The position numbers and the translations under genes were made by a program. The notes under the pieces are model-generated. The model saw only the letters and a list, made by a program, of their open reading frames with translations, was not told where the DNA came from and did no database searches. DNA of 64,000 nt, taken from the NCBI GenBank assembly GCA_965223665.1, contig OZ245011.1, positions 2,080,001 through 2,144,000 of the forward strand. Direction: 5' to 3'. Source of the DNA: Nitrospinaceae bacterium. GTDB lineage: Bacteria; Nitrospinota; Nitrospinia; Nitrospinales; Nitrospinaceae. Shown here piece by piece: positions 30,019 through 63,023 of the stretch (position 1 is its first letter; every line of letters starts with the position of its first letter).

Positions 30019-30051
30019 CCCTCTTTCTTAAAGAGGGTCGGGGTGATTCAC
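30019..30051 (+). repeat. REP/MITE-like repeat copy
   Basis: CCCTCTTTCTTAAAGAGGGTCGGGGTGATTCAC. Confidence 0.8.
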
Positions 30052-30146
30052 CGCCAGGGGTTTTATGTTTTCTGACTTATGCAATGGTCGCGTTTCAGAG
30101 GGGAGATTTTTTAACTCATTTTATTTTTCCTGGGGAGGAAACAAGC

Positions 30147-31415: not shown

Positions 31416-31899
31416 TACTTTAATAAACAGTTTCGTTCCGGGTGGTTCCACCACCCGGTTGCGGAAGCGGAGGCCGTTGGCATTTCCTACCCATCGGCCC
31501 AAAATCTGCAATTTTTAATATAACAAACATGATCCTTTCCGATATTTTCTTTTGAGTAATCTCAATCCTAGTTTGTCTAAAAACAACTATATTTTTATCT
31601 GAAAAATAATTATAAACCAAGACTCCTTTCCGAAAAGCTGCTGAAAACCCTTCTTCTTCAGTCCATACTCGCCACCTGTTTCACCCCCCTTTTGAACCAT
31701 TACATTCATGACCGGTTAGAATTCCATTTGATTTTTTCGAGCTAAGGATATTTCCGGTTGCTCACCGAATGTGACAAGTTTCGTCACTTGACAGACCTGA
31801 TTCGGTATGAGTAAATACGGGTCCACTTCATTGAATACATTCAGGTTTCAAACCGTTGACCCTATATTTTTTTATATTTATTTTCCAAGGAGGAATAGC

Positions 31900-39280: not shown

Positions 39281-39868
39281 ATGCCATATCATCGAACGAT
39301 TTTATGTTTATTGAGCTCTACCTTACTCGCCACACCTCACGCCGTCGCCGATAACCTGGACCAGGCACAAAAAGCTCTTAATATGATTCAGGAATCCGCT
39401 ATTAAAATGTGCGGAGAAACTTCCACCAAACACACATCGTCTTCTTTAGAACTAAGCGGTAAATCGAAAGCCGAATTAAAAAACCTGATCAGTAAATTGA
39501 TGGGGTTGAAAATCCAGGGAGCCGCCAAATACCAAACCTCAGAATCCGAAGGCGTGCTGCAAAAAGACTTAGCCGGTGAACTCAAGGATACTCGCAATTG
39601 CAGACGCGATCTGTTTCAATCCCTGCAAAAGAAGTTAGTGCCCGACTTGTCTTCCCAATCAGGTAGTAACGGGAATGTCAACGTAGGAGGCAATCAAACC
39701 GGGGATATTAAAGGCAATACCGGAAACATTCGTATCGGCGATTCCTTCGGAGGCGATAAAATCGAAGGCGACAAAATTGTGAAAGAAACACATATCAGCG
39801 GCAATCAGGTCAACCACATTGAAACCAACACCGGCACCATCAACATCGGTGGCATTCCAGACAAATGA
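39281..39868 (+). CDS. Secreted two-Cys domain protein with C-terminal motifs C and B
   Basis: AAGGAGAGG SD; signal ending AVA; GNQTGDIKGNTGNIRIGDSFGGDKIEGDKI then ISGNQVNHIETNTGTINIG. Confidence 0.85.
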   Translation: MPYHRTILCLLSSTLLATPHAVADNLDQAQKALNMIQESAIKMCGETSTKHTSSSLELSGKSKAELKNLISKLMGLKIQGAAKYQTSESEGVLQKDLAGELKDTRNCRRDLFQSLQKKLVPDLSSQSGSNGNVNVGGNQTGDIKGNTGNIRIGDSFGGDKIEGDKIVKETHISGNQVNHIETNTGTINIGGIPDK

Positions 39869-41442: not shown

Positions 41443-41450
41443 TTTTTACC

Positions 41451-44898: not shown

Positions 44899-45969
44899 CT
44901 AATGGTCTTCAAATAAAGTACCGGCCCGCCAGTCGTCCCTTCCCGTAGCACTGGCACCCCTGCCTCCACTGATGCTGGAGGAGAATCCACTCGCTGTGTT
45001 TTCTTTGCCTCCGGTGATTGTGGCATAGGGACCTGAAATCACATTTTGTTGGCCGACTACAATACCGCCATAGCTGGAATAATTGTTTCCGTTACCCAGG
45101 ATTAAGTTGTGAGAGCCGGATTTATCGGGTTCAGGTGTTGGATCCATGGCATGTCGACCCCAAACAATATCTTCTCCGTAACCTACAATCAGGTTACCCA
45201 ATCCATTGACGGCAGGATTAGGGTCACAGAGTTCAATAAAAGAGGACCGACAATCAGGATCGCCATTCGTTGCTCCCAGGCCGTTCTCAACATGAATATT
45301 GACTCCTGTGAAATGGATGTCATTGCCATCACGTGTCACACCCGCCAATATAGCTTTCAGTTCATCAACTTCAGCCCGCAATTCTTCGATAGTCATCGAA
45401 CTGCTAGAATAAGTCACCTCCAATCTTGGGATCCTTGTCAAAGATTCTCGAGAATTCATATCAATACCATTGGAGGTTCCTGCGGTGCGAATGGTGATGC
45501 CGTTATTGACAAATCCACCGTCAATCCAGCCTTGCACCATATTCACACCATGTTCATTTAAATTAATCGTGATTTTCCCTAAGCTAAATGCAGGAATGAC
45601 TCCACGCACTAAAGCAGAGCCGGACAAATCACTCCAGTCCACCCTATCTTCATTCCATGGGGTGTTCTGTCGAATAATGTTATAAGCACCACTACTCGAA
45701 TCAAACAAATTCAAGGTAATGGACGCAGCGGTCACAATAGCGTCGGAAGGAATTGATGAAACATCCCATTTAATTAAAGCGGCGACTTCTCCACCGGATC
45801 CATCATTTCCATCTGCCAGCAAAAAATTTTCGTTCCCAAAATTACTATTGGGATCAGACTCACTGATATAACTGTCCTCCACGGCAAAGAATTGATCCGT
45901 CACCGCAAACGAATTGCCAGCTACAAACAGAAGAGTTAAAAATACCCACAAAGCCATTACCTTTTTCAT
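44899..45969 (-). CDS. DNRLRE/SxSGG-repeat protein, paralog 9 (about 2 repeats)
   Basis: ATG 45969 with GGAGG SD; ends DWRAGTLFEDH. Confidence 0.85.
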   Translation of the reverse strand: MKKVMALWVFLTLLFVAGNSFAVTDQFFAVEDSYISESDPNSNFGNENFLLADGNDGSGGEVAALIKWDVSSIPSDAIVTAASITLNLFDSSSGAYNIIRQNTPWNEDRVDWSDLSGSALVRGVIPAFSLGKITINLNEHGVNMVQGWIDGGFVNNGITIRTAGTSNGIDMNSRESLTRIPRLEVTYSSSSMTIEELRAEVDELKAILAGVTRDGNDIHFTGVNIHVENGLGATNGDPDCRSSFIELCDPNPAVNGLGNLIVGYGEDIVWGRHAMDPTPEPDKSGSHNLILGNGNNYSSYGGIVVGQQNVISGPYATITGGKENTASGFSSSISGGRGASATGRDDWRAGTLFEDH

Positions 45970-46218
45970 GATCAGTCCCTCCACTTTGATGTTTTAATAC
46001 CAATAGGAAGATAATTAATTCTTCAATTAAAATATACGGTTTAGATGGATAACTTAATATCGTTGGACCTATATTTTTGCTGTCCTATTTTGTTTTACAT
46101 AAGTGAGGCGCAGAAAGGGTAGAAGAGGAATTTGTGGAAGTTATGTATTAATGGTTAAACCGTGGGATGATCTTACCGGAGATCTTGGAAAAACTAATTT
46201 TCCGGTGGAGGCAAAGCG

Positions 46219-46243
46219 CCCGGCCCTGCATAGCAAGGCCGGG
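46219..46243 (-). terminator. Hairpin downstream of paralog 8
   Basis: CCCGGCC-ctgcatagcaa-GGCCGGG. Confidence 0.55.
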
Positions 46244-46261
46244 TTGAATGAGTGATAAAAT

Positions 46262-47548
46262 TTAATTATCTTGAAACAAAGCACCAGCGACCCAGTCATG
46301 GTTTCCTAAAGCTGTTCGACCTAAGCCACCGCTGACATTGGACATTTGACCATTGGCGGTGTTATTTTGGCCTCCACTAACACTGGAGTAAGCTGCATTT
46401 GCTGAGTTACCTAAGCCGCCACTGATGCTTGTGTAATTTGAATAAGCGGAGTTGCGTAAACCACCACTGACATTAGACCAATTTCCATTTGCAAAATTGT
46501 CACGACCACCACTGACGCTATTGGCCAGCGCTCCGCTGGCTCTATTATTTTCTCCCCCATTGATACTTGAGTGGTTTCCACTGACCATGTTATCTCTGCC
46601 GCCACTGACACTGGAATAGCGACCCGATATCGCATTATCTTGGCCTACCACTAATCCACCAAAACTGGCATAGTTAAGCCCATGGCCGACCACAATATTA
46701 TGTGAACCGGATTTATCTGATATCACAGGTTGGCCATAGCCATCGAAAGGATCAATTTTTTCATCATAACCGACAATCAAATTGCCCAGCCCGTTGACAG
46801 TTCCGGTGGTGCTATCCGGGTCTTCCATATTGCCATTGGTAGCACCCAGGCCGTTTACGATTTTCAAATTCATTCCTTCAAACTGAAGCGTCGTCCCATT
46901 TCGGGTGACTCCTGATAAAAGGTCTTCCAAAAACGCCACGCGTTCGAGCAGATTTTGAACGACGGTGTCATAGGTCACTTCCAAAGTGGGGGGCGGTCCT
47001 GCCGATTCCTTAGAATCCATCATGATGCCGTTGTTGGTACCACCGGTTCGAATGATCAACCCGTTATTGGGAATGGAACCATCCACCCAACCCTGCACCA
47101 AAGCGACGCCGCTGGCATGTAAAACATGGGTCCCTAAACCAAACGTTAAAGGAGGCACGGTACCTAATAAGGTTCCTCCCTGATTAAGATCATTCCAGGT
47201 CACGGAGCCTTCGGTCCAGGCCGTGTCTTGTGAATAGATATTGTAAGTTCCCGAACTGGCGTCGGTATAATTGAAGGTCACCGAAACGCTGGTCACGGTT
47301 GAACCGGCTGGGATTGAAGACACGTCCCACTGAACCAACGTGACGACTTCCCCGAATCTACCGTTATCCGGATCTTGCGAAACTCCGTCGGCAAGGAGTT
47401 CCATTTCGGCTCCATAGTTCATAGTGGGAGAAGTGCTTCTCACATAACTGTCTTCAGGATTGGTGAACGTATCGGTCACCGCCAACGACGGTGTGCTGAT
47501 GCATAACGCCCACAATAAAAACATAGATAACGTTTTTACGAATTTCAT
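46262..47548 (-). CDS. DNRLRE/SxSGG-repeat protein, paralog 8
   Basis: Same architecture; ends DWVAGALFQDN. Confidence 0.85.
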   Translation of the reverse strand: MKFVKTLSMFLLWALCISTPSLAVTDTFTNPEDSYVRSTSPTMNYGAEMELLADGVSQDPDNGRFGEVVTLVQWDVSSIPAGSTVTSVSVTFNYTDASSGTYNIYSQDTAWTEGSVTWNDLNQGGTLLGTVPPLTFGLGTHVLHASGVALVQGWVDGSIPNNGLIIRTGGTNNGIMMDSKESAGPPPTLEVTYDTVVQNLLERVAFLEDLLSGVTRNGTTLQFEGMNLKIVNGLGATNGNMEDPDSTTGTVNGLGNLIVGYDEKIDPFDGYGQPVISDKSGSHNIVVGHGLNYASFGGLVVGQDNAISGRYSSVSGGRDNMVSGNHSSINGGENNRASGALANSVSGGRDNFANGNWSNVSGGLRNSAYSNYTSISGGLGNSANAAYSSVSGGQNNTANGQMSNVSGGLGRTALGNHDWVAGALFQDN

Positions 47549-49989: not shown

Positions 49990-51603
49990 ATGGATAAACG
50001 AATCGAGGGTTTAATTACCAATGCCAAAATGTTGGCATCTACCGGATCCTACCAGGAAGCGATTTCTGTATTCAATCAGGCTATAGAAATTGATCCTACT
50101 AACATCGCCCTTTGGGTCAGCAAAGGCAACACCTTAATCAAAGCGGCCTTATACGAAGAAGCGCTCATTGTTTTCGAAACGATCTTCGTATTGAACCCAA
50201 ATTTCCATCTTCTCTGGAATCCATATCAAAATGAGTTTGTCGAATCTCTTATAGGTATCGATCCTAATGTATCTATTCACTTTCACGAAATAAAAGCCGA
50301 ATCCCTGACTTTAGACAGCTTATTGGAGCTGGTGATCATCAACAAGGTCAAGGAGGACTCGGAAGAAAGTGAGAACGAAGAATCTTCTCCTCCACCGGAA
50401 GACACAAAGGACACACCTGAAGAAAGTGACGACTTGCCAATAATTCCCAAGGAAGATCCTTCCGTTCCCCCTCTATATGTCAACGTCACTAAAGGACCGG
50501 GAAATAAAATAGGCGGCGACAAATTAATGGATGATAAGGTAGGCGAAGATAAGCTGGCCGATGAAAAAAAATTCAGTGGCAATAAACGACCCATCATCAC
50601 TGAAACCGATTCCGACATGAACTACAAAGTCGTTCGCACTTTTTTTGCCACCGATCGCAACCGTACCGAGAAGGACTCACCCAAAGACATGTTTGGGACG
50701 GAACGGTCCAGTCTCACCTACGGCGTGTGCGATGTCAGCATTCCCCGCAATCATACCATCGGAGAGTTGGAGTCACCTTCCATTTTACGGCTGGAGTTTC
50801 GCGAGGATCCGGAAAAACATGTGGTGTTACTAAAAACGGAGGTTAAAGAAAAGGAAGGGTTCTTTGGAGAAATTGCTCAATGCATTCAGGAAGGTAAAAC
50901 CAAAAATGCCTTTCTGTTTGTGCATGGTTACAATGTAACGTTTGAAGATGCCGCAAGAAGAACCGGGCAAATGGCTGCCGACCTCGATTTCGATGGCGCG
51001 CCGGTGTTTTACAGTTGGCCGTCACAGGGGAACTTTCCGTCCTATCTTATCGATTCACAAAACATCGAGTGGGCACAAACCAATCTAAAAAACTTTTTGC
51101 TGGAGTTTTTTGCGGACTCTACCGCTGACAATATTTATCTCATCGCCCACAGTATGGGCAACCGCGGGTTGACACGGGCCTTGATTGCGCTGCTTAAAGA
51201 AAAGCCGGAGTACAAGGAAAAATTAAAGGAAGTGATCCTGACCGCACCGGACATCGACGCCGATGTGTTCAAGCGGGATATTGCCCCCGCGCTTAGCCAA
51301 TCGGGAAAACCCATCACGCTTTACGCCTCTTCCAAGGACAAAGCGTTGATCGCCTCCAAAAAAGTCAACGGCCACCCCCGCGCCGGGGACTCAGGTGAAG
51401 GATTGTTGATCCTTCCCGGAATGGAAACCATCGATGCCACCGGGGTCGATACCGGTTTCCTCAAACACTCCTATTTCGCCGAGAGAAAATCCGTTTTGTC
51501 AGACATTTATTATATTGTCCAAAAAGGAATCCGCGCCGACGACCGCTTCGGCCTCGAACGCAAAGACACCCCCACCGGCCCCTACTGGGAATTTAGAGTT
51601 TGA
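49990..51603 (+). CDS. TPR + acidic/GDK-repeat linker + DUF900-like alpha/beta hydrolase
   Basis: N-terminal TPRs; FFATDR, FVHGYN, YSWPS, IAHSMG, APDID, HSY motifs. Confidence 0.85.
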   Translation: MDKRIEGLITNAKMLASTGSYQEAISVFNQAIEIDPTNIALWVSKGNTLIKAALYEEALIVFETIFVLNPNFHLLWNPYQNEFVESLIGIDPNVSIHFHEIKAESLTLDSLLELVIINKVKEDSEESENEESSPPPEDTKDTPEESDDLPIIPKEDPSVPPLYVNVTKGPGNKIGGDKLMDDKVGEDKLADEKKFSGNKRPIITETDSDMNYKVVRTFFATDRNRTEKDSPKDMFGTERSSLTYGVCDVSIPRNHTIGELESPSILRLEFREDPEKHVVLLKTEVKEKEGFFGEIAQCIQEGKTKNAFLFVHGYNVTFEDAARRTGQMAADLDFDGAPVFYSWPSQGNFPSYLIDSQNIEWAQTNLKNFLLEFFADSTADNIYLIAHSMGNRGLTRALIALLKEKPEYKEKLKEVILTAPDIDADVFKRDIAPALSQSGKPITLYASSKDKALIASKKVNGHPRAGDSGEGLLILPGMETIDATGVDTGFLKHSYFAERKSVLSDIYYIVQKGIRADDRFGLERKDTPTGPYWEFRV

Positions 51604-51610
51604 GATTAAG

Positions 51611-51985
51611 CTAAGATTCTTTTTTGAGGATTTGGAGGATTTGGTCCCACTGTTTGCGAAACTCGGCATCAAGGCGTGCATGTTCGTTGTCCAGGTGACG
51701 CTGTTGAAAAAATTCCACCTGATTTTTGAGCGCAGCCATTTTTTCCGAATTCTTCTGCACAATCTCAGAATTCTTGCGGGTCAATTCCTGCAACGTTCGC
51801 ACCTGCTCTTTCACACCGCTGATAATGACCTGCGACGTGATCAGTGTCGACCCGCCCCAACCCACTAATCCCAAAAATGCAATTGTAAGAATTTCTCCAA
51901 TCTTTCGACTGCTGATTCCGCCACCGTTACCATTTGGTGCAGCAACTCCACGATCACATGATACATCATTGATCCTGTCTCCCAT
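51611..51985 (-). CDS. Small TM + coiled-coil protein downstream of the tail fibre
   Basis: GGAG upstream; ILTIAFLGLVGWGG then heptads. Confidence 0.6.
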   Translation of the reverse strand: MGDRINDVSCDRGVAAPNGNGGGISSRKIGEILTIAFLGLVGWGGSTLITSQVIISGVKEQVRTLQELTRKNSEIVQKNSEKMAALKNQVEFFQQRHLDNEHARLDAEFRKQWDQILQILKKES

Positions 51986-52081
51986 GAACCATCCTACTCC
52001 CAGTTAAAAATGATTCGCTATGATTCGAGAATCTTTTCCTGTTTTAACTTCCAGCATGGTTCGAGATTCCTTCCTTCTCCG

Positions 52082-55021
52082 TTAAGAAACTATCGCTCTA
52101 TCTTGAACGCGCAACCAATTCGTCCCATCACTGAATGCTACGGTTGCTCCACCCGTTTCATCCGAAACATAAATAAGCCCCGAAGTGGTAGAGGCTGAAG
52201 GTAATGTGGCCACGGTATACTCGGGCAAATCGACATACTGCGAGGAGTAAGAGGTTCCTATTATTCCTCGATCGGTTACCCGTCGCCAATTGGTCCCGTC
52301 GCTGAATGCCACAGTTGCCCCTCCGACATCGTCAGAAACATGGATATAACGTCCAGCTGTTTTGGACATCGCATTCGCGCTGGATACTGTATGAACCGGC
52401 ATGGTTAGGTATTGATCCTGATTGGGTTCATTAATGACAGGAACTGTTTTTCGGCCTCCATCAGTTTGAGAAAAGGCAATGGCTCCCTTACCACCATCGG
52501 CGTCATCGAGAAACCAGCACATGCCCTCCATTAGAGATGCCCACGGAAGGACCGAATCTGTAGTGGTTTCATCATTATGGGTTCTGGTTTTCCAAAATAA
52601 ATGAGTTAAACCATAAAACGTTCGTCTTGCCTCGGTATTGGATTCATTTGTGATTCCCAGCCCATTGCCCCAATGAAGTTTTCCGCGGTTAGAATCCACC
52701 GAACCTTCATTATGTCGCATCCCAAAAATACCTACATTTGCGCAAGTTTGAAAATCGACATAACAACTGCTGTCTTCTGCAACGTAACCATAAATCATGT
52801 TATTAATATTAACCTGGTTTGATTCCGGGCCGAATTTACTTTTTATATAAATCCCTGTATCACGGGTGAATGCATAATTGATATCTTCGTCTCCTGAAAC
52901 GGTAATAACCGTTTCGGGTGTAATGCTTCCGGAAACCACCGTAAAGTTACAGGAACCCGATCCAACACTGGTCAATTGAACTCTGACATTCGCGTTCAAA
53001 CCCAAATTAATTGTAAGGTGATCGCCCACTCCCAATTGAGTTGTGTCAAAGTCGGCTCCATTGGAATCAATGCTGGAAGCATTTACATCCACAGAAGTGG
53101 GTTCAGCTAAAAACAAAGGATTGGCCGGTGAGGACCCTGAGATAATACCTTCCGTCATGTGGTCGGCAGAATACCCAATGATTTGAAGAGTGTCGGCCTG
53201 ATGAACCACAATCCCTAAATGGCCCCATCGACTGGTGCAACCAATTAACCGGTGCCGGGTCGAACCTTTGTGCCGGCTGGGATCGGTGCTTCCCCAACTT
53301 GGATCATAAAAGAAAAATCCAACAGCAACCTCAATGGTTTTCACGTTTTCAATGTAATCCCAATAACTTCCCTCGGTGGTTCCCGCGACCACTACACCCA
53401 CGCTGGCATTAACAACCAGGATGTCTCTCAGAGTGTTGTGCACTCCATAGCTTGTAGAATTTTCACCGGATACTGTTAAGCTGTTCCAGGCTATGGTTTC
53501 ATTAGCCGCTACATTTGCTACCGTGAGGGTTCTACGATCTGAAGAAAGAGCCGTCGAAACATAAGCGAGATCATTCGTTCCACCAGCAGTCCCGGAAATA
53601 TCGTAAGTGTCTCCAATTTCTCCTAACCAATAACTTCCGGAAGGCAGGGTGATAGTATTTGCCGTGCTGTCAAAAGTGACATTCGGGTTTTGCCCCGGAG
53701 TAATCGCGGCGGGCCAGAAATCTCCATTGGTTTGAAGGCTGGGAGGAACCAGACCCACACCAATCATATTTTTTGCATAATCCCGTCGATCGGTTTCCAT
53801 ATCAATCCCAATTCCCTGAACCGTCGTCTGGGCGGTGTTGATCCGAATCATCATCATATCCGAGGTCGGGTCTTTGGGTTTTAATATCGTATTGTGTTCT
53901 CCACCTCCCACAATACGAACAAATTTACTGGTGACTTGGGCAATGGTTTCAAAATTCATTTCATCTACATGAATCCCAACCTTTAAGATAGTACCGTTTG
54001 CATCCGGCCACTTATCGATCCAGGTCACCCCATCCAGATAATAGGTTCCGGGTGGTATGTAAACCACGCCGCCGGTTAACATACAGTCATTGATCGCCTG
54101 CTGAATTCCAACTGTAGCATCATGTGCTGGGTTATTAATTTGGACATTATAGGGAGCTTCCGTCACGTTATAGAACTGAGCGCCCAAACTTCCACCGCCT
54201 CCCCCGCCGCTGGCGTTGATGGTGATGTCGTCCGCATTATTATCGATGGTGACGTTACTCCCTCCGATGATGCTTTTAATCGGCGTGTCCGATCCGACTT
54301 TGGACTTCACCAGCCCGGCACCTGACCCGCTATTGGAGTTTGTGTTGATCTCAGCGGTCGTATTGACCGTCACCTCGCTGGTGTCGTCACTGACGTTGAT
54401 CAGGTTACCGCCCTGAATGGTTTTCATCTCAAAATCGACACCCGATTTTTGTTTAAAGACCTGACCCGTTCCGGTTCCCACATTGGACATGGTGTTTTGC
54501 TCTCCCACCTCAACATCACTCGCCACAGCAGGATCTCCGTTCGAATCAAACATGAGAAACTTATCCGCACGCAGCGTTTTTGTCGGAAGCTCGGTATTGG
54601 AACTTCCATCGGACACCGGTATCGTGACGGAACGTCCTGCTTTTTCAAAAGCGCGTCGTGCCAGTTGTGTGTTTTTGTCCAATGCGTTTTCGACGACCTG
54701 CGGATTGAAACCGCCACCGATGGTCAGGTCTTCCTGCTGAGTGAACGGCGGTTGATAAATGAGGTTCAACTTTTCGCCGCTGGGTAAAGGCGATCCTATG
54801 ACGGGATAGGTGAGAGTGCCTCCGGGATTCTGATCCTGGTCGGGATTCAACGTCAGCGAAAAATCCGAATCCAGCACTAACGTGTCATCATCGATACCCG
54901 CCGCGTTGGTATGAATGACCTGCGCTTTGGTTTTATCGACAATTTTTGTGGTGATGGGCCAGGACGTGGTAACCCCGTTGCCTAAAAAAGGACCGTCCTT
55001 AATATTCTCATTGGTGATCAT
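52082..55021 (-). CDS. Podophage-type tail fibre/tailspike (T7 gp17-like anchor, pectate-lyase-like beta-helix, duplicated C-terminal module)
   Basis: ATG 55021 with GGAG SD; GNGVTTSWP...FNPQVVENALDK; DATVGIQQAIND...VVYIPPGTY; two VSDxxGGATVAFSDGTNW units. Confidence 0.85.
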   Translation of the reverse strand: MITNENIKDGPFLGNGVTTSWPITTKIVDKTKAQVIHTNAAGIDDDTLVLDSDFSLTLNPDQDQNPGGTLTYPVIGSPLPSGEKLNLIYQPPFTQQEDLTIGGGFNPQVVENALDKNTQLARRAFEKAGRSVTIPVSDGSSNTELPTKTLRADKFLMFDSNGDPAVASDVEVGEQNTMSNVGTGTGQVFKQKSGVDFEMKTIQGGNLINVSDDTSEVTVNTTAEINTNSNSGSGAGLVKSKVGSDTPIKSIIGGSNVTIDNNADDITINASGGGGGGSLGAQFYNVTEAPYNVQINNPAHDATVGIQQAINDCMLTGGVVYIPPGTYYLDGVTWIDKWPDANGTILKVGIHVDEMNFETIAQVTSKFVRIVGGGEHNTILKPKDPTSDMMMIRINTAQTTVQGIGIDMETDRRDYAKNMIGVGLVPPSLQTNGDFWPAAITPGQNPNVTFDSTANTITLPSGSYWLGEIGDTYDISGTAGGTNDLAYVSTALSSDRRTLTVANVAANETIAWNSLTVSGENSTSYGVHNTLRDILVVNASVGVVVAGTTEGSYWDYIENVKTIEVAVGFFFYDPSWGSTDPSRHKGSTRHRLIGCTSRWGHLGIVVHQADTLQIIGYSADHMTEGIISGSSPANPLFLAEPTSVDVNASSIDSNGADFDTTQLGVGDHLTINLGLNANVRVQLTSVGSGSCNFTVVSGSITPETVITVSGDEDINYAFTRDTGIYIKSKFGPESNQVNINNMIYGYVAEDSSCYVDFQTCANVGIFGMRHNEGSVDSNRGKLHWGNGLGITNESNTEARRTFYGLTHLFWKTRTHNDETTTDSVLPWASLMEGMCWFLDDADGGKGAIAFSQTDGGRKTVPVINEPNQDQYLTMPVHTVSSANAMSKTAGRYIHVSDDVGGATVAFSDGTNWRRVTDRGIIGTSYSSQYVDLPEYTVATLPSASTTSGLIYVSDETGGATVAFSDGTNWLRVQDRAIVS

Positions 55022-55028
55022 GTTCGAC

Positions 55029-55164
55029 TCCACAAACAAAAAAGCCCCGCTGCCACAGGTCCCTCCTGTGGAGCCGGGCGTCGCGTTTGCGGTGGTCCCA
55101 ACCAAGGCAATTATTTAGTTTTCATTCCTTATTATTATACCAAGTCCGGCCCCATTCGTCTGCA
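55029..55164 (-). promoter_or_regulatory. Conserved promoter + structured leader/terminator, copy 1
   Basis: TGGTATAAT extended -10; GGGACCACCGC..GCGACGCCCGGCT-hairpin-CAGCGGGGCTTTTTT; homologous to 63220-63353. Confidence 0.75.
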
Positions 55165-55262
55165 TAAATATTGTTCCACACTCAATTTTTCCAACCTGCG
55201 ATTGGGAGAGGAGAAACACATCAACTATCCTTTCACATATAATTTTGATACAATCGGTAGTT

Positions 55263-55742
55263 ATGAAACGAATCTTGTTTACATTGTTAATGGCTGTGGT
55301 TCTGTGGGGTGGGATTGCGGTGGAAGGTGTTCTGGCCGCGGATCGGAATTATATGGTGGAAAATTGCGAGCGGTCGGTCGCCTGGCCGGAGATATTACGG
55401 ATTATCCGTTGGCACGCTCCTGAGCTCAAAGAATTCATTGAAAAAAATGTCAAGCCGACGCAAGAGAATCCTAAACTCACTGAAGAGGATCATAAGCAAG
55501 TCGAACAATTTGACAAAAACATTCAGTGGTACGTCTCCGAGTGCATTCTCTTGATGAAAGAGATCAATGTTTTGGTGAAAGCCGTGCATGATATAGACCC
55601 CGAGGAAACTTTTATAATTGGTTTTAACATTAAAAGGTCTTTAGTAATGTTAGATATTCCCTTTATTTACCATTACAATAAGAAATATGATTTCGTATTT
55701 TCCGTTAATTTTGCGCCGTTAACACCGGATAAAACTTTCTAA
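55263..55742 (+). CDS. Secreted hypothetical protein opposite to the tail cluster
   Basis: ATG 55263; signal MKRILFTLLMAVVLWGGIAVEGVLA; two Cys. Confidence 0.7.
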   Translation: MKRILFTLLMAVVLWGGIAVEGVLAADRNYMVENCERSVAWPEILRIIRWHAPELKEFIEKNVKPTQENPKLTEEDHKQVEQFDKNIQWYVSECILLMKEINVLVKAVHDIDPEETFIIGFNIKRSLVMLDIPFIYHYNKKYDFVFSVNFAPLTPDKTF

Positions 55743-58700
55743 CAAAAACCATAACTTCTTTGGGCAAATATTTAATTACTTCAACAAAATGATCTTCTAA
55801 ACCCATTTTGTTATTATTAAATGCCGCTTTCCTTTGAGCTTTTTCAATTGCTTCTGGTTTAGAAACATAAGCAGCTAGAGCAAATAACAACGGATTCTTT
55901 GTGTCCTTGAACTGTGGCATTATATTTTTAAACAACCACCACATCCCAGCCTGAATGTTGGTTTCCTGATCCGTCAGGATTTTTTCCGGAGTCCAACCCA
56001 GTTTTTTATTCTCCTCATTCTCCGCAATCAACTTAGCGGTGGCCCGTGTAATTCCCATCGGGCCCATCCGCTTTGCTTCCGGTTTATCATTCGGATCGGT
56101 TGGGAACCCATTCTTCACCATGATGTTCATCACCTGCGCCATCTGATCGGTAGACATCGACACCGACTCCTGAAACCGCTCGGCAATTTGTAACACACTC
56201 GCCTGCCGCGCCTGCTCCGTCGAAAAGTCCAAAGGCGTCGCCTCGGCTATTTGCCCCGATTCAGTTCTCTGCTGATCCTGCCGCTTGCGCCGGATCAACG
56301 CATCGATCAATCGTTCCATATGAGGCTGAATCTTTTTATTAAACTTTTTCACGAGTCCTTCTTTATTTTTTTCCAACTCCTCCAGAGAAAATTCAGCATC
56401 CACCCGTTCGAGCACCCGAGTCACATTCTCCGGTTTGACGCCCGGCGCATACAGCATGGAATCCCCAATCTGATAATCCATCGCCAACCGCGGATTATTT
56501 TTCCACAGTTCCCGCATGTCTTCTGCATTGAGTCGTGTGAGTCCTGCAGCAAAACTATTTGAGGAAGCTTGTTCCACTTTGGGGTTTTGAATCGATTCTT
56601 GATCCGCCAGCATTTCCTCATTAAAACCCTTATGAATTTTTTCTCGGACTTTCTCGTTATAAAACCCGGGTTCTCTTAAATTTTTATAGATAAGTTCATG
56701 ATTCGCTTGCGCATTTTTATGCGACCCCGGTCGGCGCATGTTGACCAGCACCTCTGCCATTTGAGTCCACCCCGGGTCCTTTCCGGTTTCCCTTAAGATT
56801 TTACCGATAATGTCGAATGTCGTTTGCGGTAACCCGATCAGTTGATCTAAAGTAATTGTATAGAATTTGGATGCATCTTCATCTTTCTTAGTCGGATTAT
56901 GCAACGCCGTGGGAAGCCCAACCAAAACATAAATTTCTTTCGGATCTTTCCCTTCCAGATCATCCGCCGAAACCCATTTGCCTCGGTAATGGAGCTTATC
57001 TTTCATCCGACCTCGGATCAGGGAGTTTTCTATTTTCGGACTCGGTGTGGTTCCCTTGAACAATTTAAATTTCAGGATATCTTTGTTATATGCCGATACC
57101 ATGGTATTCAGACTTTTATCATTTATTTTGAGGTTTTCATTTTTCCTGAGAGCTTTAAACTTTTCCAGGTTTTGTAATTGAGCTTCCTCCAGGGGCGGCG
57201 TGTCTAAAGGAACCACGATGCCGGGACCGGAGGAAGAAGAGGAAGAGGAAACAGAGGGACGTTTTCGAGGATCCGGTGTTTGAGCGGCCAGGATACTTCT
57301 GTCCCACAATATCTCCCGTTGGGGCGTGTTTGCTTTAACTCCAATATCGGCAATTTCTTCGCCAGTTAACCTTCTTCCCAACTCCTTTTCCTTTTTCATG
57401 ATATCTTCAATGACCGCAAACACATAGAAATCCTGGTAATCCGCTTCAATCTCTTCCGACTTTATCTGCTGCAAAATGGTAGACACTTCCTCTTTTTCTT
57501 GTTCATACGAGGCACGGAGTTCGTCGATATTAGGAACCTCTTCTGTCTTTGATAGTTTTTCTGCTTTATAAAGGTCGTTGGCCGCTTTTCCAAAACGTGA
57601 TAAAAAAGTGACAATGGAAGGAGGGGCCCCGCGTTCCTCTAAATGGAAATTCGTGTTGGCCAGCCTTTCAAAGCCCAAAGGGTTGGAGGAAACCGCTCCT
57701 CTCAGAAGATCCGCCCAACTTTTGCTGCGATTAAGTTCGATTAAACCGCCGGTGAGGTCTTCTTCCGACGGTTCCCTCGAAGCAAATGGGGAAAACGAAC
57801 CATCGTCCACCGTTAATTTAAATTGACCTTCCTGAGAAGATTCCTCCCCAAACCGATAGCCCGCTCTATCCTCCCATCTTTGGATTAACAATTCCTGTGT
57901 TTTACTGTCCAGAGCCAGCCATTGATCCAGTTTGGTAATTTCCGGTAATGGCACTGGAGTTTCCCCCTTATCAATGAATTGCCGGATATAAACAGAATTT
58001 TCATATTGCGTTTCCATTTTTTTCAGGGTTTCTTCTCGATCTTTATAGGCCATAAAACTTTGCGCCGCTTGCCGTATGTTAGTATTCGGCTCATCGGTCA
58101 ATGCCCGAATTTGCAAATCTTTCGGCAACGAAAAAATCTCGTTGGCCAACGCCTCCCCCGCTTCCAATTCATATTGTCGTTCGATCCTTGCTTCTAATAC
58201 CGCAGTGTCCGTTTCCCCAAACTCCTTTTGATGTGTCGTGAAATACTCCCGTGCCTCCCTGGCATGGCCGGTCTTTAACAGACGATCGATCACCGTCAGG
58301 TTCACCGTACTTAACACATGCTGCCATTCCCGGTTTTCACGTTCCTCCGTCCAACCGAGCAGTCCGGCAAAATGTTCCACCGACAAAAACTCATCGTTTC
58401 AATCTGCTCCTCACCCAACCGGGCCACCAGGGGAGCTACCGCTTCCGATCCCTTACCGGGAATGACTGTGGGATTGCTCTTTAAGTTATCTAAAATTTTC
58501 TGAAACTTTTCTTGGGCCGAGAAACTATATTCATTGTTACTGTCCGGAAAGACTTTTAAAATCATCGGATCGGTTTTTCGTCGCAACTTGAGCGAATCCA
58601 GTCGCGGCATTTTCAGGTGCTGTTCCATAATATTGCGGAGGGTGATGGGTTGATCCATTTCCCGCAATTGTTTTCCGAAATGCCAGAGGCGCGGGCCATG

Positions 58701-58837
58701 AGACTTCCTTCCTGTTTTAAACTTTCTACCGTTTCGTTTTCTGTGTTGGCTTTCAGGGTGGATTCATCCACCGGATTGTCCTGCGATAGCTTGGCACTGT
58801 TTTGACCGGTTTGTTGTTTTCTTATTTTTATTCCCAT
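55705..58837 (-). CDS. Large internal-virion/ejection-like protein with degenerate SLT domain, split by two 1-nt frameshifts
   Basis: ORFs 58837-58613, 58667-58311 and 58386-55705 join when one base is added to runs 58671-58674 and 58397-58399; C-terminal NIQAG/ALAAY SLT-like motifs. Confidence 0.65.
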
Positions 58838-59139
58838 AAGGTTTCAGTTCTCAATTGGTTTTTGGTTTGAAAATATGAAGAGATTGGGAGTTTTCTTCCC
58901 TGAAGAATGGTGTAAAATCCGATTGGATCCCTTATTTTTTTGCTGGAGGTCAATTACCCCGGCCCGGCCCCTGGCCGGCGGAACCATAATATTCGGGACT
59001 CTCTTTTTACCGGAAAAATTTCCCGTTTCAAATGGCCTATATATATAATGAACAAACTCGTGATTTTTTTCTGGTTTAGCGGCAAATTGAGTCGTTTTCT
59101 GCCTCTTTCCGACGCCAAATTCGGGTAAAAAATCGAGTT

Positions 59140-59631
59140 TTAAGCTGATTTTTCCAGGAAGAGATGCTCTGCACCAGAAGCTGGGATTTCTTTTGTGGTT
59201 ATATACCCCTTCGTGGCGTACCCCAGTTTCTCGTAAATTCCCAGGGTACGCTTCGCTTCCACTTCGGTACTGATTCCCAATGTGATGACGCGTGCCCCGT
59301 TGTCTTCGGCCCACTGTTCAAATACTTTGATCAGTCGAACGCCCAGCGATCCGCCGCGGTGCTCCGGCACAACGTACACTGCCAAATCGGAGGCCATCAA
59401 ATCGTATCCGAAATAATGTTCGGTTATAAAACCAATCATCATCCCCACCGCTTCACCTTCCTTTTCAGCAATAAAGATACTGCCGGAGGGAATCAAAGCT
59501 TCTCCCAACTGTCTGCACTTGTCCTCACTGAAATCCATCATGCGAAAACGCGGACTTTCCTGATGCATGCGTTTGCCCATTTCCATGAGCATCGGAATGT
59601 CGTCCAACGTCGCCTGCCGTATATTAGCCAC
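59140..59631 (-). CDS. GNAT acetyltransferase at the podophage tail-module position
   Basis: GTG 59631 overlaps the upstream stop; IRQATLDDIP, YVVPEHRGGSLGVRLI, YEKLGY. Confidence 0.85.
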   Translation of the reverse strand: MANIRQATLDDIPMLMEMGKRMHQESPRFRMMDFSEDKCRQLGEALIPSGSIFIAEKEGEAVGMMIGFITEHYFGYDLMASDLAVYVVPEHRGGSLGVRLIKVFEQWAEDNGARVITLGISTEVEAKRTLGIYEKLGYATKGYITTKEIPASGAEHLFLEKSA

Positions 59632-62404
59632 CGAGTTGTACCTCCAAAGCCATTGATAAAATTGTGGTCGGCACCGGGTCGCGTTGGCGAATGAACGTTT
59701 GCCCCGCGCGATTCCATCCCGGGGTGAGCGCCACTTCAATTTCACTGGTAATCATTTCCGTGGGAAAGCCGTAAGGTTCGGTGGTTCGCTGAATGTAAGG
59801 AGACAGGTGATCGAAGTCCGGCCCCACTAAAAGTCCACGACTGTCTTTCACACGAAAGTACGCATGCGTGACCGATTTCATAAACCCCTGACCAAACGCT
59901 TCGATTTGCATCGCCATCGGCAACGTCACCAGATCTGCTTCAATAGGCAGTCCCACATGCACACGGCCACCGGGTAAATTAAACTGTACCTCACCGTCCG
60001 TCACCACTTCCTGCGAATCGACGCGACCGTCAGAAAAAATCGATACCGTTTGCCCCTCTAAATGATGCAGGTTGTTCACTTTCGATATCTTCTTTCGCAC
60101 CACGCCACCTTCTTCGTAAACATTGTATCCGGTTCCATCCACATCTTCCGGAGTGGTCACCGGCGTTTGCAGTTCAAAGCTGTTCGCATCTGAGTTGTTG
60201 ATCTTAAAGGTATGTCCGTTGAGTTCAGTCATTCCTTCAACATTGGCGATGATCACTTCGTCCCCGTCATTGAATCCATGACTGTTGGCGGTGATCACTA
60301 TGGGATTAGCCTTTGTGGCACCGCTGATGGGTTTGGGATCATCGTAAGTCAACCCGCTGTCCACAAAGAATGCGTCTTCCACTTCGTAAAATCGTCGCGA
60401 ATGCAACCGCTCGATGTAACGACGCTCGACACCGTTAATGGTACGTTTCACCAGACAGTACAACATGTTCTCGCCATTGTTCTCAGGAACTACGGCGGTC
60501 GACTCGAATGCACCTTCTAAAGTGTCGTGGCGGTGCCAGCCGAGAATGATCGGCTGTTGGTCCGGCAAGTAAGTACAGCCCAACAACTTGCCATCGGACC
60601 GCACACACCATACGGTCGAATTGGGATAACGCGAGTAATCCCAATCGAGAACCTTAAACCCGTCGATCAAATGCGGCGCGACCAGTGAAATGTCATCCGG
60701 TTTATACTTGTCCCGTTCAAAGGAGAAGTTAAACGTGTGCACATGATTCCCCTTGTCGGCAATGAACAAAGTGGAATCCCCTACCACCAATGGACGCACG
60801 TCGGCACTGCCAATGTGACTTTGCACCTTGATATTGACGGTGGTGGGAGTGAGCGCGTCTGAGTTTCCAGTGGAAAGTCGCCACTCGTTATTATTGGTGA
60901 AGACCATGAGATCGTTGAGTGAGACCAGGTGACGCACGCTGTTGTGTTGGCGAGATTTCAAACGCACCGTAATCGCGTTGTCGTCCTGCGAAGGAATCGA
61001 TTTGGTTAAATTGGATTCGGTTCCCGAGCGCGTCATCCAGATTGCCTGAGGTAAATCATTGGATGAAGCCAAACAACGGCGCTGGTCGTGATACGCTACG
61101 GTTCCCGGGTAATGGTTCGCCGCATAAAAGGGATCCGGATCAAACGGCGGCGTTTGCAAAACATCCGGTGTGATATTGTCATCAACAAATTCTAAATCGG
61201 AGGTTTGTCCGATGTACCCGTACAAACCTTTTTCCAGTTTGTAAACATTGTAACGGATAGCATTAGTTACCGGCTCCCAACCAATGGTATTATTAGCGCC
61301 ACTTTTTGATAAATCGTTTATGCAAACAGCTTCGCTGACAAATCCTCCAGATACATAGTTGGTGAAATTGGAAGAATCAGTTCCCGACAACTCAAAGGTA
61401 TCAGTATTCGGATTCAAAACGTCGTAAAATTGCCCGTTAATCCCTGAGGTCCCATTCAGTCCTGTCATTCCCTCTACTTCAGTAATTCGAATACGATCAC
61501 CATTGGAGAAAGTATGACCAACTGCTGTAACTAATAAGGGACTACTTCCACTTTTAGTAATGGTTCCGATTGCAATTCCTCTTGCAGGTAGGGATTCCTC
61601 CTGAATATCCTCGTCGATTGCTGTGACCTGATAATCGTAATCAATACTATCTCCTCCACCGGCCCCAACATCTGCAACCGAAGCGACGGTGATTGGTGGC
61701 TCAATCGATGGCTTCCAATCGATGATATTGAATGCCCAGTTGGTGGCGCCCATGCGGCGCAGTTCCCGGGGAGCGTAGGATTTATGAGTGATGGTGACTA
61801 CGTCAGCGCTTTGTTCGAATTTGAGTTGAAATAAATCCGCGGCAGGGTAAGGCGTGGCTAAGGTATACACACAAGCCGAGGTTCCCCCCGAAGTGTAGGG
61901 AGTATAACTCAGGCCATTAATATTGTTGCCTTGTAGATCGGTGAGTTCAAACGTATCGGTGAGTGGATTTTTGATTTTAAAGAACCGGCCGTTGAGTTCA
62001 GTCATTCCACCGACCCCGTTAATAAACACTTCATCGCCTGCCGCATAACCATGCCCGGTAACCGTAACCATTACCGGGTCGGCATTGGTGGCGGCGGTAA
62101 TATTTTGAGCCGTTTCCAATATCGTTGCGCCTTCGGTATGAACGCGCATGTAAAAATCGCCGAACTCCAGAATGTACGCCTGATCTGTATTAAAGATAAA
62201 CGGCAACAAACGCACAGGATTGGGGCCGCCGTCTTTCGCTTCTTTTATAAACTCGAACCCCGAGCGGTTCTCGGCAGGACCGGAAGGTCGTGTGATAAAG
62301 TTTCGACACCTCTCAACTCCAATCTGAAAGTGATGGAGATCGATGCGGCCAAACATTTCAGGAGCCACTTCGGCTCCGCCAAACGAACGTTGATGCGTAC
62401 GCAT
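59624..62404 (-). CDS. Phage tail tubular protein B / nozzle (T7 gp12-like) with three repeated inserted domains
   Basis: QRSFGGAEVAP, RLLPFIF, YILEFGDFYMR, YPGTVAYHDQR, GWHRH, VDSG, VHVGLP; three GH...GD...GMTxLNG inserts. Confidence 0.88.
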   Translation of the reverse strand: MRTHQRSFGGAEVAPEMFGRIDLHHFQIGVERCRNFITRPSGPAENRSGFEFIKEAKDGGPNPVRLLPFIFNTDQAYILEFGDFYMRVHTEGATILETAQNITAATNADPVMVTVTGHGYAAGDEVFINGVGGMTELNGRFFKIKNPLTDTFELTDLQGNNINGLSYTPYTSGGTSACVYTLATPYPAADLFQLKFEQSADVVTITHKSYAPRELRRMGATNWAFNIIDWKPSIEPPITVASVADVGAGGGDSIDYDYQVTAIDEDIQEESLPARGIAIGTITKSGSSPLLVTAVGHTFSNGDRIRITEVEGMTGLNGTSGINGQFYDVLNPNTDTFELSGTDSSNFTNYVSGGFVSEAVCINDLSKSGANNTIGWEPVTNAIRYNVYKLEKGLYGYIGQTSDLEFVDDNITPDVLQTPPFDPDPFYAANHYPGTVAYHDQRRCLASSNDLPQAIWMTRSGTESNLTKSIPSQDDNAITVRLKSRQHNSVRHLVSLNDLMVFTNNNEWRLSTGNSDALTPTTVNIKVQSHIGSADVRPLVVGDSTLFIADKGNHVHTFNFSFERDKYKPDDISLVAPHLIDGFKVLDWDYSRYPNSTVWCVRSDGKLLGCTYLPDQQPIILGWHRHDTLEGAFESTAVVPENNGENMLYCLVKRTINGVERRYIERLHSRRFYEVEDAFFVDSGLTYDDPKPISGATKANPIVITANSHGFNDGDEVIIANVEGMTELNGHTFKINNSDANSFELQTPVTTPEDVDGTGYNVYEEGGVVRKKISKVNNLHHLEGQTVSIFSDGRVDSQEVVTDGEVQFNLPGGRVHVGLPIEADLVTLPMAMQIEAFGQGFMKSVTHAYFRVKDSRGLLVGPDFDHLSPYIQRTTEPYGFPTEMITSEIEVALTPGWNRAGQTFIRQRDPVPTTILSMALEVQLGG

Positions 62405-62405
62405 G

Positions 62406-63023
62406 TCAAGACCTCCTTGCTAACATCGACGGCGGCATATAGTTTTTCAATCGCTGCTCCGGTTGGCGTGTCGCCTGTTGCGAGTTCGCGTCTTCCATGA
62501 TCGCTTTTGGCAAAGCCACCGCTTCGTAACGTTCCAGCGCCATCTGCGCGATCTGCGGTTTGCGGGTGATGGGTCCCGAAAGATACGATGCCAACAACCA
62601 GGATAATGCGGTGACAAACTTCGGACGGAATACTGTGGTGTCTTCGACCAAAGAGGTGAACGTCAGTACCGCCTGGTAGGCGTCGGTTAAAATGACGCGG
62701 CCGTGAATGTCGTCTCCTGCTTCTTTCCATGGGATGGGAATCTCGTTTCCAACTTCATTGACCTCGATTCCTTTAATGTAAAGGTTAGGAATTTTATACC
62801 GGAACAACCAACCGGAGGGCGGGTCGCCGACATCGGCCAACGCCAAAGTGCGCTCGGCGAATCCCCAATGATGCGCCTCCAGCAATTCTTTCAGAGCAAT
62901 CGGGTAAAACCGTGCACAATGTGCCGCTTGGGAGGTTCCGTCGGGAGGACTGATTCCCGTCACCTCGGCCTTATCGCCAAAATGACCTAACGCTAAATTA
63001 CAAATATCCACAACTGAAGGCAT
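62406..63023 (-). CDS. Phage tail tubular protein A / head-tail adaptor (T7 gp11-like)
   Basis: SVVDICNLALGHFG, LLEAHHWGFA, FVTALSWLLASYL; AAGGA SD. Confidence 0.85.
   Translation of the reverse strand: MPSVVDICNLALGHFGDKAEVTGISPPDGTSQAAHCARFYPIALKELLEAHHWGFAERTLALADVGDPPSGWLFRYKIPNLYIKGIEVNEVGNEIPIPWKEAGDDIHGRVILTDAYQAVLTFTSLVEDTTVFRPKFVTALSWLLASYLSGPITRKPQIAQMALERYEAVALPKAIMEDANSQQATRQPEQRLKNYMPPSMLARRS

Follow-up and report, generated by a model that had tools for sequence, protein, structure and literature searches.

Do the phage tail genes near the right end of a chromosomal stretch from a Nitrospinaceae bacterium form a short-tail apparatus of their own, or do they belong to something larger? 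The stretch, hereafter the window, comprises all 64,000 nucleotides analysed, C1:2080001-2144000 of contig C1 in the genome G000; coordinates prefixed C1 are contig positions and plain coordinates are window positions. A first-pass annotation had described the tail genes as head-less, and as either a domesticated apparatus or one part of a dispersed particle resembling a gene transfer agent (GTA). The cluster proved to be the tail-tube, ejection and fibre end of a phage-derived locus of ~62 kb (C1:2131611-2193227, window 51611 to ~113227). On balance we lean towards reading this locus as a long-kept, replication-less element derived from a podophage, possibly one that still makes particles.

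Head and packaging genes of the locus

Head genes were sought by tblastn with translated genes of the phages BPP-1 and MW202640 against the whole genome, and the assignments were confirmed with Pfam and PHROGs. A head module was found at C1:2164350-2182214, on the minus strand like the tail genes and 21-38 kb beyond the adaptor. It includes the capsid gene (C1:2165648-2166652, minus strand; 44% identity by tblastn; PF20911, 6.4e-130) and the portal gene (C1:2167917-2169563, minus strand; 47% identity, E 8e-165 by tblastn; PF12236, 4.3e-152). The terminase family PF03237 had no match in the genome, and the large terminase (C1:2180661-2181653, minus strand) was located by tblastn instead, with 32% identity over 341 aa to the MW202640 terminase. 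Also on the minus strand, tblastn placed a Bbp16 homologue within C1:2164350-2182214, a bbp15 homologue and the protease both within C1:2164470-2181653, and a bbp12-like internal protein, encoded by an intact open reading frame (ORF) of 175 aa, at C1:2164470-2164745 (extent of the tblastn match). Further families matched in the module were PF21190 (4.5e-13), PF25181 and phrog_458 (2e-38). The portal, capsid, protease, Bbp16 and large terminase genes fall within C1:2165201-2182214. No homologue of the head or tail genes was found by tblastn on the other G000 contigs, C2-C6.

Large terminase, portal, protease, capsid, Bbp16, the bbp12-like internal protein, adaptor, nozzle and fibre are each encoded once in the locus. 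Every structural gene lies on the minus strand, all the single-copy ones are open and full length, as the first-pass annotation had noted for the adaptor, nozzle and fibre, and the head genes and the nozzle each matched at a single place in the genome. Because the head genes lie just past the window edge, the tail genes are one end of a larger locus and not head-less. The earlier statement that the window contains no portal, terminase or capsid gene is correct, though only because the window ends at 64000 and these genes start 21 kb further on; the head-less appearance is an artefact of the window edge. A genome search for portal, large terminase and capsid genes had been proposed as a check, and it recovered all of them, on the same strand, so that the particle genes make up one interrupted locus rather than a dispersed set. 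An element without capsid, portal and terminase genes, as in a tailocin, is not what the genome holds; adaptor and nozzle families accompany head genes of the same lineage, as in a BPP-1-type structural module.

Conservation in the sister species

The only other genome of the genus in the collection, G001, is a metagenome bin of a sister species. It holds a syntenic copy of the locus, including both flanks and with the same gene order, in which the portal shares 99.8%, the capsid 96% and the terminase 95% protein identity with G000. Nei-Gojobori estimates for G000-G001 pairs of the ratio of nonsynonymous to synonymous divergence (dN/dS) were 0.002 for the portal (dS 0.35), 0.037 for the capsid (dS 0.56), 0.044 for the terminase (dS 0.44), 0.02 for Bbp16 (dS 0.87), 0.093 for the protease (dS 0.36), 0.062 for the bbp12-like gene (dS 0.45) and 0.074 for a 705-aa ORF (dS 0.63). 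The host gene rpoB gave 0.022 at dS 0.70, and the genes flanking the locus had dS values of 0.5-1.1. By these estimates, the head genes are under strong purifying selection at host-like synonymous divergence.

Both genomes also have an unusual order, with bbp15 followed by the bbp12-like gene and then a gene for a protein of ~1000-1100 aa, and with cassette arrays on either side of the terminase. Since it is found in both, this odd order predates the split of G000 and G001. Shared synteny together with purifying selection at host-like dS points to a vertically inherited, selected and defective element rather than a recent, strain-specific prophage. Such an element would have been inherited vertically as an already defective phage and kept by selection, and it most likely would still build capsids or particles, as a GTA or another defective-phage particle.

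Vertical inheritance and purifying selection are indicated for the head, internal-protein and fibre-anchor genes in 2/2 genomes of the genus; the adaptor and nozzle were not found in G001. The comparison with relatives that the first-pass annotation had called for came out divided, in that the locus is syntenic with head-gene dN/dS values of 0.002-0.09, while the block of adaptor, nozzle and GNAT genes was found only in this genome. Among 40 relatives searched with the nozzle and portal, the portal was otherwise found only in G028 (24% identity), and the nozzle only in the same distant genome, at 36% identity and in a different phage. Portal relatives were absent from viral contigs, were represented by one 46%-identical fragment in metagenome contigs, and in genome contigs came only from G001.

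Tail-end genes in the window

The adaptor, nozzle, GNAT, large protein, fibre and small membrane-protein genes listed in the first-pass annotation are real and all lie on the minus strand, as assessed by Pfam, PHROGs and ORF analysis. The adaptor (62406-63023, minus strand; 205 aa; tail tubular protein A type) matched phrog_394 at 1e-39 over residues 1-191 and is 41.5% identical over 212 aa to BPP-1 bbp14. The nozzle (59624-62404, minus strand; tail tubular protein B type) is full length at 926 aa, matched phrog_376 at 7.8e-196 over profile positions 6-711 of 712, contains three E1_FCCH stretches and is ~41% identical to BPP-1 bbp13. It is a single-copy gene in the genome and matched 230 of 50,697 phage records, all at <60% identity. 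Its 2457 homologues are closest at 51-55% identity, on contigs of <=50 kb, and no close relative was found in the genome or viral contig collections. GC content at third codon positions (GC3) was 0.59 for the adaptor, 0.53 for the nozzle and 0.56 for the GNAT gene, compared with 0.61 for the portal, 0.59 for the terminase and 0.57 for the capsid.

The GNAT acetyltransferase gene (59140-59745, minus strand; PF00583, 4.2e-12; PF13508, 6.1e-11; phrog_1249, 1.2e-35) probably has its true start near the nozzle stop codon. The ~750 bp between it and the next large ORF, which encodes an 893-aa protein, contain no credible gene. Further along lies a tail fibre or spike gene (52082-55105, minus strand; 1007 aa), whose product matched phrog_1640 (6.1e-10) and phrog_5510 (5.6e-9) at residues 38-160 and the solved tailspike anchor of Dpo31/Dpo36 at residues 31-160 (1.4e-11), with an N-terminus 38% identical to that of BPP-1 bbp9. 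Compared with G001, its codons 1-130 show 100% protein identity at dS 0.25, and the part past codon 391, the distal two-thirds, only ~22%; judged by these alignments, the N-terminal anchor domain of the fibre is conserved and its distal part variable. The locus ends with an ORF (51611-51985, minus strand) for a small protein of 124 aa, in which a single hydrophobic stretch precedes a coiled-coil-like tail. Its product is 83% identical to its G001 orthologue (dN/dS 0.14), and its family matches were weak and below threshold only (LeoC model in PADLOC, E 4.6e-4). The proposal that these genes have their own promoters found no support, as a consensus scan gave 12 sigma-70-like sites against 17.3 +/- 4.7 in shuffled sequences.

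The 893-aa ejection-type protein

Comparison with paralogues and a structural model indicate that the 893-aa ORF (55705-58386, minus strand) encodes an internal virion protein of the ejection type that ends in a lytic-transglycosylase-like domain, and that the gene is truncated at its 5' side. The ORF is the counterpart of residues 217-1111 of a paralogue in G001 that has its full length of 1111 aa, with 40% identity. Just upstream, in another frame, tblastn revealed a fragment of the middle of a different ejection-protein paralogue (58326-58676, minus strand), which is 56% identical over 117 aa to residues 764-873 of a 1151-aa protein of G001 and is probably, as far as the alignment can tell, a recombination scar.

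The 893-aa protein had no direct Pfam SLT match. Its C-terminal ~120 aa are 33% identical (E 3e-14) to a 300-aa paralogue that carries PF01464 at 1.2e-11, and an AlphaFold model of its last 160 aa (pLDDT 85.5) matched MltF, MltE and Slt70 best, with TM scores of 0.6-0.66, probability 1.0 and E 0.011 or weaker. The protein is thus SLT-bearing by transitive homology and predicted fold only. The glutamate of the ES motif is the catalytic residue of SLT lytic transglycosylases. At the corresponding ES/ET column, read from an alignment of 20-28% identity in which the column assignment could be off, glutamate is lacking in the 893-aa protein and in the 1105-, 1111-, 1151- and 490-aa proteins, and the ~300-aa paralogues have ES or ET. 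The description of a large SLT-bearing protein in the first-pass annotation stands as regards ancestry and fold; it lacks the direct Pfam match and the glutamate.

The imm genes and their transglycosylase-type partners

A gene missing from the earlier gene list, imm1 (55245-55742, plus strand), ends within the end of the 893-aa ORF, the two overlapping by 38 nt. It encodes a secreted protein of ~160 aa with a signal peptide and two invariant cysteines, and is one of 12 paralogues with 35-82% protein identity, all on the plus strand and all inside C1:2135245-2187145. The Imm proteins have an N-terminal hydrophobic leader that ends in A-A-D/N, a mature part of ~135 aa and a conserved cysteine pair. 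Run against 1.84 billion representatives, a family profile matched only 6 clusters, each of them below 1e-55. The AlphaFold model (pLDDT 81.7) is helical with a C-terminal hairpin. Against solved structures, the best profile match had E 0.57 (unrelated chains), Foldseek returned none at E <= 0.001, and the best VIA-align Z was 5.9 (generic helical chains). Orthologous imm genes of G000 and G001 gave dN/dS values of 0.15-0.26, indicative of purifying selection.

Eight of the 12 imm genes converge on the end of a minus-strand ORF of transglycosylase type with an overlap of 38-44 nt, exactly 38 in seven of them, and on the main contig of G001 8/11 imm genes overlap such ORF ends likewise. The partners comprise large ejection proteins (893, 1105 and 571 aa), C-terminal fragments (80 and 159 aa) and three ~300-aa proteins with a Pfam SLT domain. 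The C-terminal fragments, of 80 and 159 aa here and 226 aa in G001, lie downstream of full genes and each has an imm gene of its own. Among eight paralogues of the ~300-aa proteins, the first ~115 residues are nearly invariant and the SLT part varies; this N-terminal part is confined to G000 and G001 (11/11 matches). Domain identity tracks the identity of the imm partners (Mantel r 0.81, a value reached by 0/5000 permutations). Each imm gene has a TGnTATAAT-like box of the TGATACAAT type ~10 nt 5' of its ATG, which suggests leaderless, constitutive promoters, and imm 5' ends share identical runs of 25-31 bases. Two other accounts of these genes were rejected. A bidirectional terminator in the 38-nt overlap did not emerge, there being no stable hairpin in five cases (z-scores -0.71 to +0.74), and the 35-82% protein identity and the signal peptides ruled out copies of an insertion sequence.

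Judging from gene arrangement and analogy, Imm1 may inhibit, or confer immunity to, the transglycosylase-like domain on which its gene converges. An Imm protein would bind and block its cognate domain in the periplasm, and this blocking could protect the producer or exclude related particles, in the way that Spackle of phage T4 acts on gp5. Spackle is a periplasmic protein that binds and inhibits the virion lysozyme gp5 in superinfection exclusion (PMC7677548). Like Spackle, the Imm proteins are small, exported and encoded by the same element as a virion cell-wall-cutting domain, here directly beside it. They differ from it in their mature length of ~135 aa, their conserved cysteine pair and their number, there being 12 diverged paralogues that each have a variable domain as partner; neither in sequence nor in fold was a resemblance of Imm to any solved structure detected.

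The layout of the cassettes resembles that of effector/immunity systems, in that a constant head is joined to variable ends, each end has its own small exported protein, and some fragments are displaced. Polymorphic toxin/immunity loci, such as those of contact-dependent inhibition (CDI), Rhs and type VI secretion system (T6SS) effectors, have a constant N-terminus, variable C-terminal toxins, a cognate small gene and orphan modules. The cassettes are like CDI and Rhs loci in their constant N-terminus with variable ends, their small cognate gene for each domain and their C-terminal fragments displaced downstream. They are unlike these loci in that imm is convergent and overlaps the 3' end of the domain by 38 nt instead of following on the same strand, in that the domain is of transglycosylase type with the ES/ET glutamate lacking in several copies, and in that the carrier would be a phage-derived particle. 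The imm/transglycosylase cassettes are new and restricted to the genus, and they are the most original part of the finding.

Between the cargo described below and the head genes come two imm genes that enclose a C-terminal gene fragment, followed by genes for internal proteins of 1105 and 1112 aa. Between the latter two, at C1:2159753-2161009, ~2.6 tandem copies of a ~477-nt unit were found, with five copies of a 55-nt plus-strand element containing TTGACA, a 17-nt spacer and TATAnT. The array contains no conserved ORF and is also present in G001 at 72-80% identity; from its motifs, the repeats may give rise to small antisense transcripts.

A genome-specific segment with foreign cargo

Compared with G001, this genome carries an additional segment of 19.4 kb (~C1:2135222-2154618), with edges just upstream of the starts of imm1 and imm2. 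It contains the adaptor, nozzle and GNAT genes, the truncated 893-aa gene, a sigma-54 activator gene and a biosynthetic operon; protein and family searches did not find the GNAT, the activator or the operon in G001 either. Non-phage cargo accounts for 11.5 kb amid the structural genes. The activator gene (498 aa in full; PF00158, 8.5e-42 on the full protein) has its 3' part in the window, from 63373 to beyond 64000 on the minus strand, and is separated from the adaptor by a gap of 349 bp. Independently built contigs of 3/4 public runs, all of one sample, cross the junction between adaptor and activator, and the junction is therefore not an assembly chimera of this record alone.

The biosynthetic operon (C1:2145303-2154615, plus strand) is divergent from the activator and, by Pfam and NCBIfam, encodes a desaturase, a PEP-synthase/PigC-like enzyme (two ORFs), a methyltransferase, an acyltransferase and a thioester-reductase/kinase protein. 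At C1:2145247 on the plus strand, 56 nt 5' of the desaturase gene (2145303), lies TGGCACAGTCTTTGCC, a motif that resembles a sigma-54 promoter. It has one mismatch to TGGCAC-N5-TTGCA and is the only good motif of its kind, none being present upstream of the adaptor. The position of the motif suggests that the activator may drive the divergent operon. In the four nearest relatives, which were searched with the cargo genes, no orthologue of the activator or the reductase was found, and the activator gave paralogue-level matches of ~42% only. Since it has no orthologue in these relatives and the motif lies at the desaturase gene, the activator is inserted cargo and not a resident regulator. The first-pass annotation was right about the gap and the activator behind it; its view of the latter as a host gene found no support.

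Each edge of the segment coincides with the conserved 5' end of an imm gene, and the difference between the genomes is therefore read as recombination between imm repeats, which could have led to loss of the tail block in G001 or to exchange in this genome. From the sequences at hand we slightly favour loss in G001 over later arrival here.

The G001 bin contains a second, divergent and partial copy of the locus on a 16-kb contig (C9, 15978 bp). This copy is rearranged and holds the portal end, two SLT/imm cassettes, tetratricopeptide repeat (TPR) genes and further cassettes. It is closer to G000 (93% nucleotide identity) than the main G001 copy is (90%), and contig C9 is probably a second strain in the metagenome bin. 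With this further copy in the bin, the absence of the block from G001 is weak evidence.

Life-cycle genes

Twenty-seven further proteins of BPP-1 and MW202640 were compared with the locus, among them the reverse transcriptase, Avd, small terminase, primase, methylase, Cro, cI, exonuclease, SSB, polymerase, helicase, integrase and lysis proteins, and 0/27 matched; mtd had no match by tblastn in the whole genome. The nearest PF00589 integrase match lies at C1:2234267, 41 kb past the right end of the locus. No tRNA gene was found in the window or in three loci that together cover C1:2143001-2203000, nor was there a candidate attachment site at a tRNA. The earlier remark that the window has no integrase or replication genes can thus be extended to the whole ~62-kb locus, where none was recognised with the 27 queries and PF00589. 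In these searches the locus showed none of the integrase, repressor, replication genes, diversity-generating retroelement (DGR) and tRNA attachment site of a complete temperate BPP-1-type phage. It has instead what is expected of a GTA or viriform, chromosomal structural genes without genes for self-replication or integration, along with ~12 ORFs without assigned function.

These ~12 conserved ORFs, including the 705-aa ORF, had no Pfam, PHROGs, NCBIfam or PADLOC family match, and those sent to NCBIfam and PADLOC gave no informative match. The 705-aa protein also had no match in the PDB, and its atlas leads were weak and viral (best score 0.83); its homologues are very variable in length and some have lectin-type domains, like receptor-binding proteins. 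Among 23 locus proteins, PADLOC matched three, namely the small membrane protein (LeoC), the methyltransferase (mad2) and the sigma-54 activator (RtcR/PspF-type). These were taken as generic or weak domain matches, and a known defence system was rejected on that basis. An Rfam scan of 60 kb of the locus gave no match.

Contigs C2-C6 of G000 are 7.7-37 kb long with GC contents of 0.35-0.44, and tyrosine-recombinase matches occur on C3, C4 and C6.

Competing explanations

Several observations weigh against the reading of the locus as a long-kept element under selection. The portal was found in 0/19 other genomes of the family, and the genus is represented in the collection by just two genomes. 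Head-gene dS is somewhat below that of rpoB, which leaves room for later exchange between the lineages, and the tail tube is not shown to be conserved, the protein and family searches of G001 having found neither adaptor nor nozzle. A small terminase and a lysis cassette were not recognised in the locus, and the ~12 conserved ORFs could conceal replication or control genes. For the cassettes, co-variation of neighbouring genes is expected from linkage alone, and the missing ES/ET glutamate in most of the large ejection proteins weakens a pure enzyme-inhibitor reading. Breakage is also evident. The 893-aa gene is truncated with a paralogue fragment just upstream, another ejection gene (C1:2175009-2178302, minus strand) is split by TAA and TAG stops into ORFs of 319, 189 and 571 aa in one frame, and one ~300-aa gene is broken into 147 and 90 aa. 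In G001 the counterpart of the split gene is a single open gene of 1151 codons, and the first ~300 residues are 67-89% alike and the remainder ~25%, a pattern that indicates module exchange. This breakage, the orphan C-terminal fragments, the absence of adaptor and nozzle from G001, the 11.5-kb foreign block and the unrecognised small terminase and lysis genes all suit one or more old defective prophages of BPP-1 type in plain decay, with ORFs open by chance or through recent arrival and nothing assembled. We regard plain decay as unlikely. Drift would not leave head genes open in both genomes at 95-99.8% protein identity (portal 99.8%, capsid 96%, terminase 95%) and dS 0.35-0.56, no essential structural gene is missing, duplicated or shortened, and the broken copies are redundant cassette copies only. 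The first-pass caveat of a decaying remnant is partly supported, by the broken redundant cassettes, the truncated 893-aa gene and the block found only here.

A further alternative concerns the history of the tail block and could be combined with either reading of the whole locus: the adaptor, nozzle, GNAT, truncated 893-aa gene and imm1 may have been acquired separately, with the activator and operon, at imm repeats, by an ancestor without tail-tube genes. A single 19.4-kb indel would account for the G001 difference, the foreign cargo has no orthologue in four relatives, the 893-aa gene is cut at the inner side of the segment, and in both genomes the canonical BPP-1 place for adaptor and nozzle, between bbp15 and bbp12, is not used. 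In T7-type phages the fibre anchor docks on the adaptor and nozzle, and the 100% conservation of this domain in G001 would be difficult to account for had the ancestor lacked a tail tube. Adaptor and nozzle moreover match the head genes in GC3 and lie at about the same distance from BPP-1 (40-47% identity), all of which speaks for an old tail tube, and no close donor was found in the genome, viral and other collections searched; separate acquisition is possible, if on the whole not the likelier history. The ~12 conserved ORFs (among them the 705-aa ORF and seven small ones upstream of the terminase side; dN/dS 0.02-0.22) could alternatively belong to an active phage, temperate or chronic, in which the genes for replication, lysogeny and integration have diverged beyond recognition, particularly as the phages of the phylum are essentially unsampled and the viral and metagenome collections gave no close relative. 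Such a phage is very unlikely here, as BPP-1-type genomes of 33-46 kb are too small to package a structural region of ~62 kb, 11.5 kb of non-phage genes interrupt the locus, the nearest integrase is 41 kb off and neither a tRNA nor a candidate attachment site was found, synteny and host-like dS point to vertical descent, and the 705-aa homologues resemble variable receptor-binding proteins, not replication proteins. Scarcely credible, finally, is the main idea of the first-pass annotation, a domesticated short-tail apparatus with no head, which would function like a tailocin and need no capsid. The head genes are indeed absent from the window, yet head and packaging genes that match the tail genes follow on the same strand at a distance of 21-38 kb, and the block was not found in the sister species. 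The podophage tail tube, besides, assembles on the portal of a filled head. A search for literature on domesticated podovirus-type tailocins found nothing related.

Relation to known phages and gene transfer agents

The locus resembles BPP-1 (Rauchvirus) and related podophages from marine and fresh waters, such as MW202640 and podophages of Pelagibacter and Vibrio, in its portal (PF12236), capsid (PF20911), Bbp16, Bbp19, phrog_394 and phrog_376 with FCCH inserts, and also in its bbp12-like protein, transglycosylase-bearing ejection protein, bbp9-like fibre N-terminus and GNAT, at 31-47% identity. Unlike BPP-1, it yielded no homologue of an integrase, repressor, polymerase, primase, helicase, DGR or endolysin; its adaptor and nozzle are not between bbp15 and bbp12, and its GNAT gene follows the nozzle, whereas in BPP-1-type phages it is located between terminase and portal. 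The ejection genes are multiplied, and with 12 imm genes and 11.5 kb of cargo inserted the locus reaches ~62 kb, compared with 33-46 kb.

GTAs have been described as domesticated entities derived from caudoviruses (PMC9662315, PMC11841831). As in GTAs of the RcGTA type (viriforms), the locus is phage-derived and structural only, occupies the same chromosomal place in related species and has head genes under purifying selection. It is unlike them in its short-type tail and in a conservation that spans two genomes and does not cover the tail tube. Its size of ~62 kb, greater than the 33-46 kb of related phage genomes, would be an indirect indication of particles that cannot carry their own locus. 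The text proper of two reviews, searched for podoviruses, does not mention them, and among the matches listed from the Nitrospina prophage literature no title or abstract pointed to such a locus. The idea of a domesticated or GTA-like element is partly supported: the absence of recognised life-cycle genes, the synteny and the head-gene dN/dS of 0.002-0.09 favour it for the entire locus, though so far not for the tail block.

Genomic surroundings

The locus lies inside a region of ~880 kb (C1 ~1.40-2.28 Mb), which includes the window and has a GC content of 0.39-0.47 per 20-kb window, mostly 0.42-0.46; elsewhere on the chromosome values are mostly ~0.35-0.38, and the genome mean is 0.382. Two paralogous sets of TPR-protein genes (38-51% protein identity) bracket the locus in inverted orientation, at 39865-43175 on the plus strand and at C1:2193871-2198474 on the minus strand, and the same inverted arrangement is present in G001. 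Adjoining the locus, a plus-strand gene at 49990-51603 encodes a TPR protein with a DUF900 alpha/beta-hydrolase domain (PF05990, 1.2e-44); in G001 just short fragments of its N-terminal region remain (ORFs of 154 and 75 aa). Nine paralogous genes for proteins of 361-482 aa with an N-terminal CBM96 module, seven consecutive and two more, occupy 22557-33183 (plus strand) and 44899-47548 (minus strand), and several of these genes are also present in G001. Elsewhere in the window are genes for a protein with a T6SS Tle1-like phospholipase catalytic domain (11132-12367, plus strand; PF09994, 4.6e-39) and for an MbnB/TglH/ChrH-type enzyme that modifies precursors of ribosomally synthesised and post-translationally modified peptides (19915-21360, minus strand; PF05114, 1.4e-42).

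Implications

Modules that appear to be missing at a window edge need a check against the whole genome before a cluster is called head-less. If functional, the locus would represent a domesticated phage-derived particle of the short-tailed type, and to our knowledge the GTAs with known genes are all long-tailed. That particle would sit in nitrite-oxidising marine bacteria, for which we know of no phage biology. By analogy, one might go further and envisage a short-tailed GTA-like particle of this Nitrospinaceae genus, with interchangeable ejected cell-wall-cutting effectors and a matching periplasmic immunity set. This is a speculative extension and we hold it to be doubtful; if true, it would amount to an effector/immunity arms race played out on a domesticated capsid and tail, with orphan modules as in CDI and Rhs loci. 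The paired arrays themselves would be a genus-restricted system without a described counterpart, and a case of co-diversification between virion hydrolases and their periplasmic inhibitors, the principle of which has been shown for T4 Spackle.

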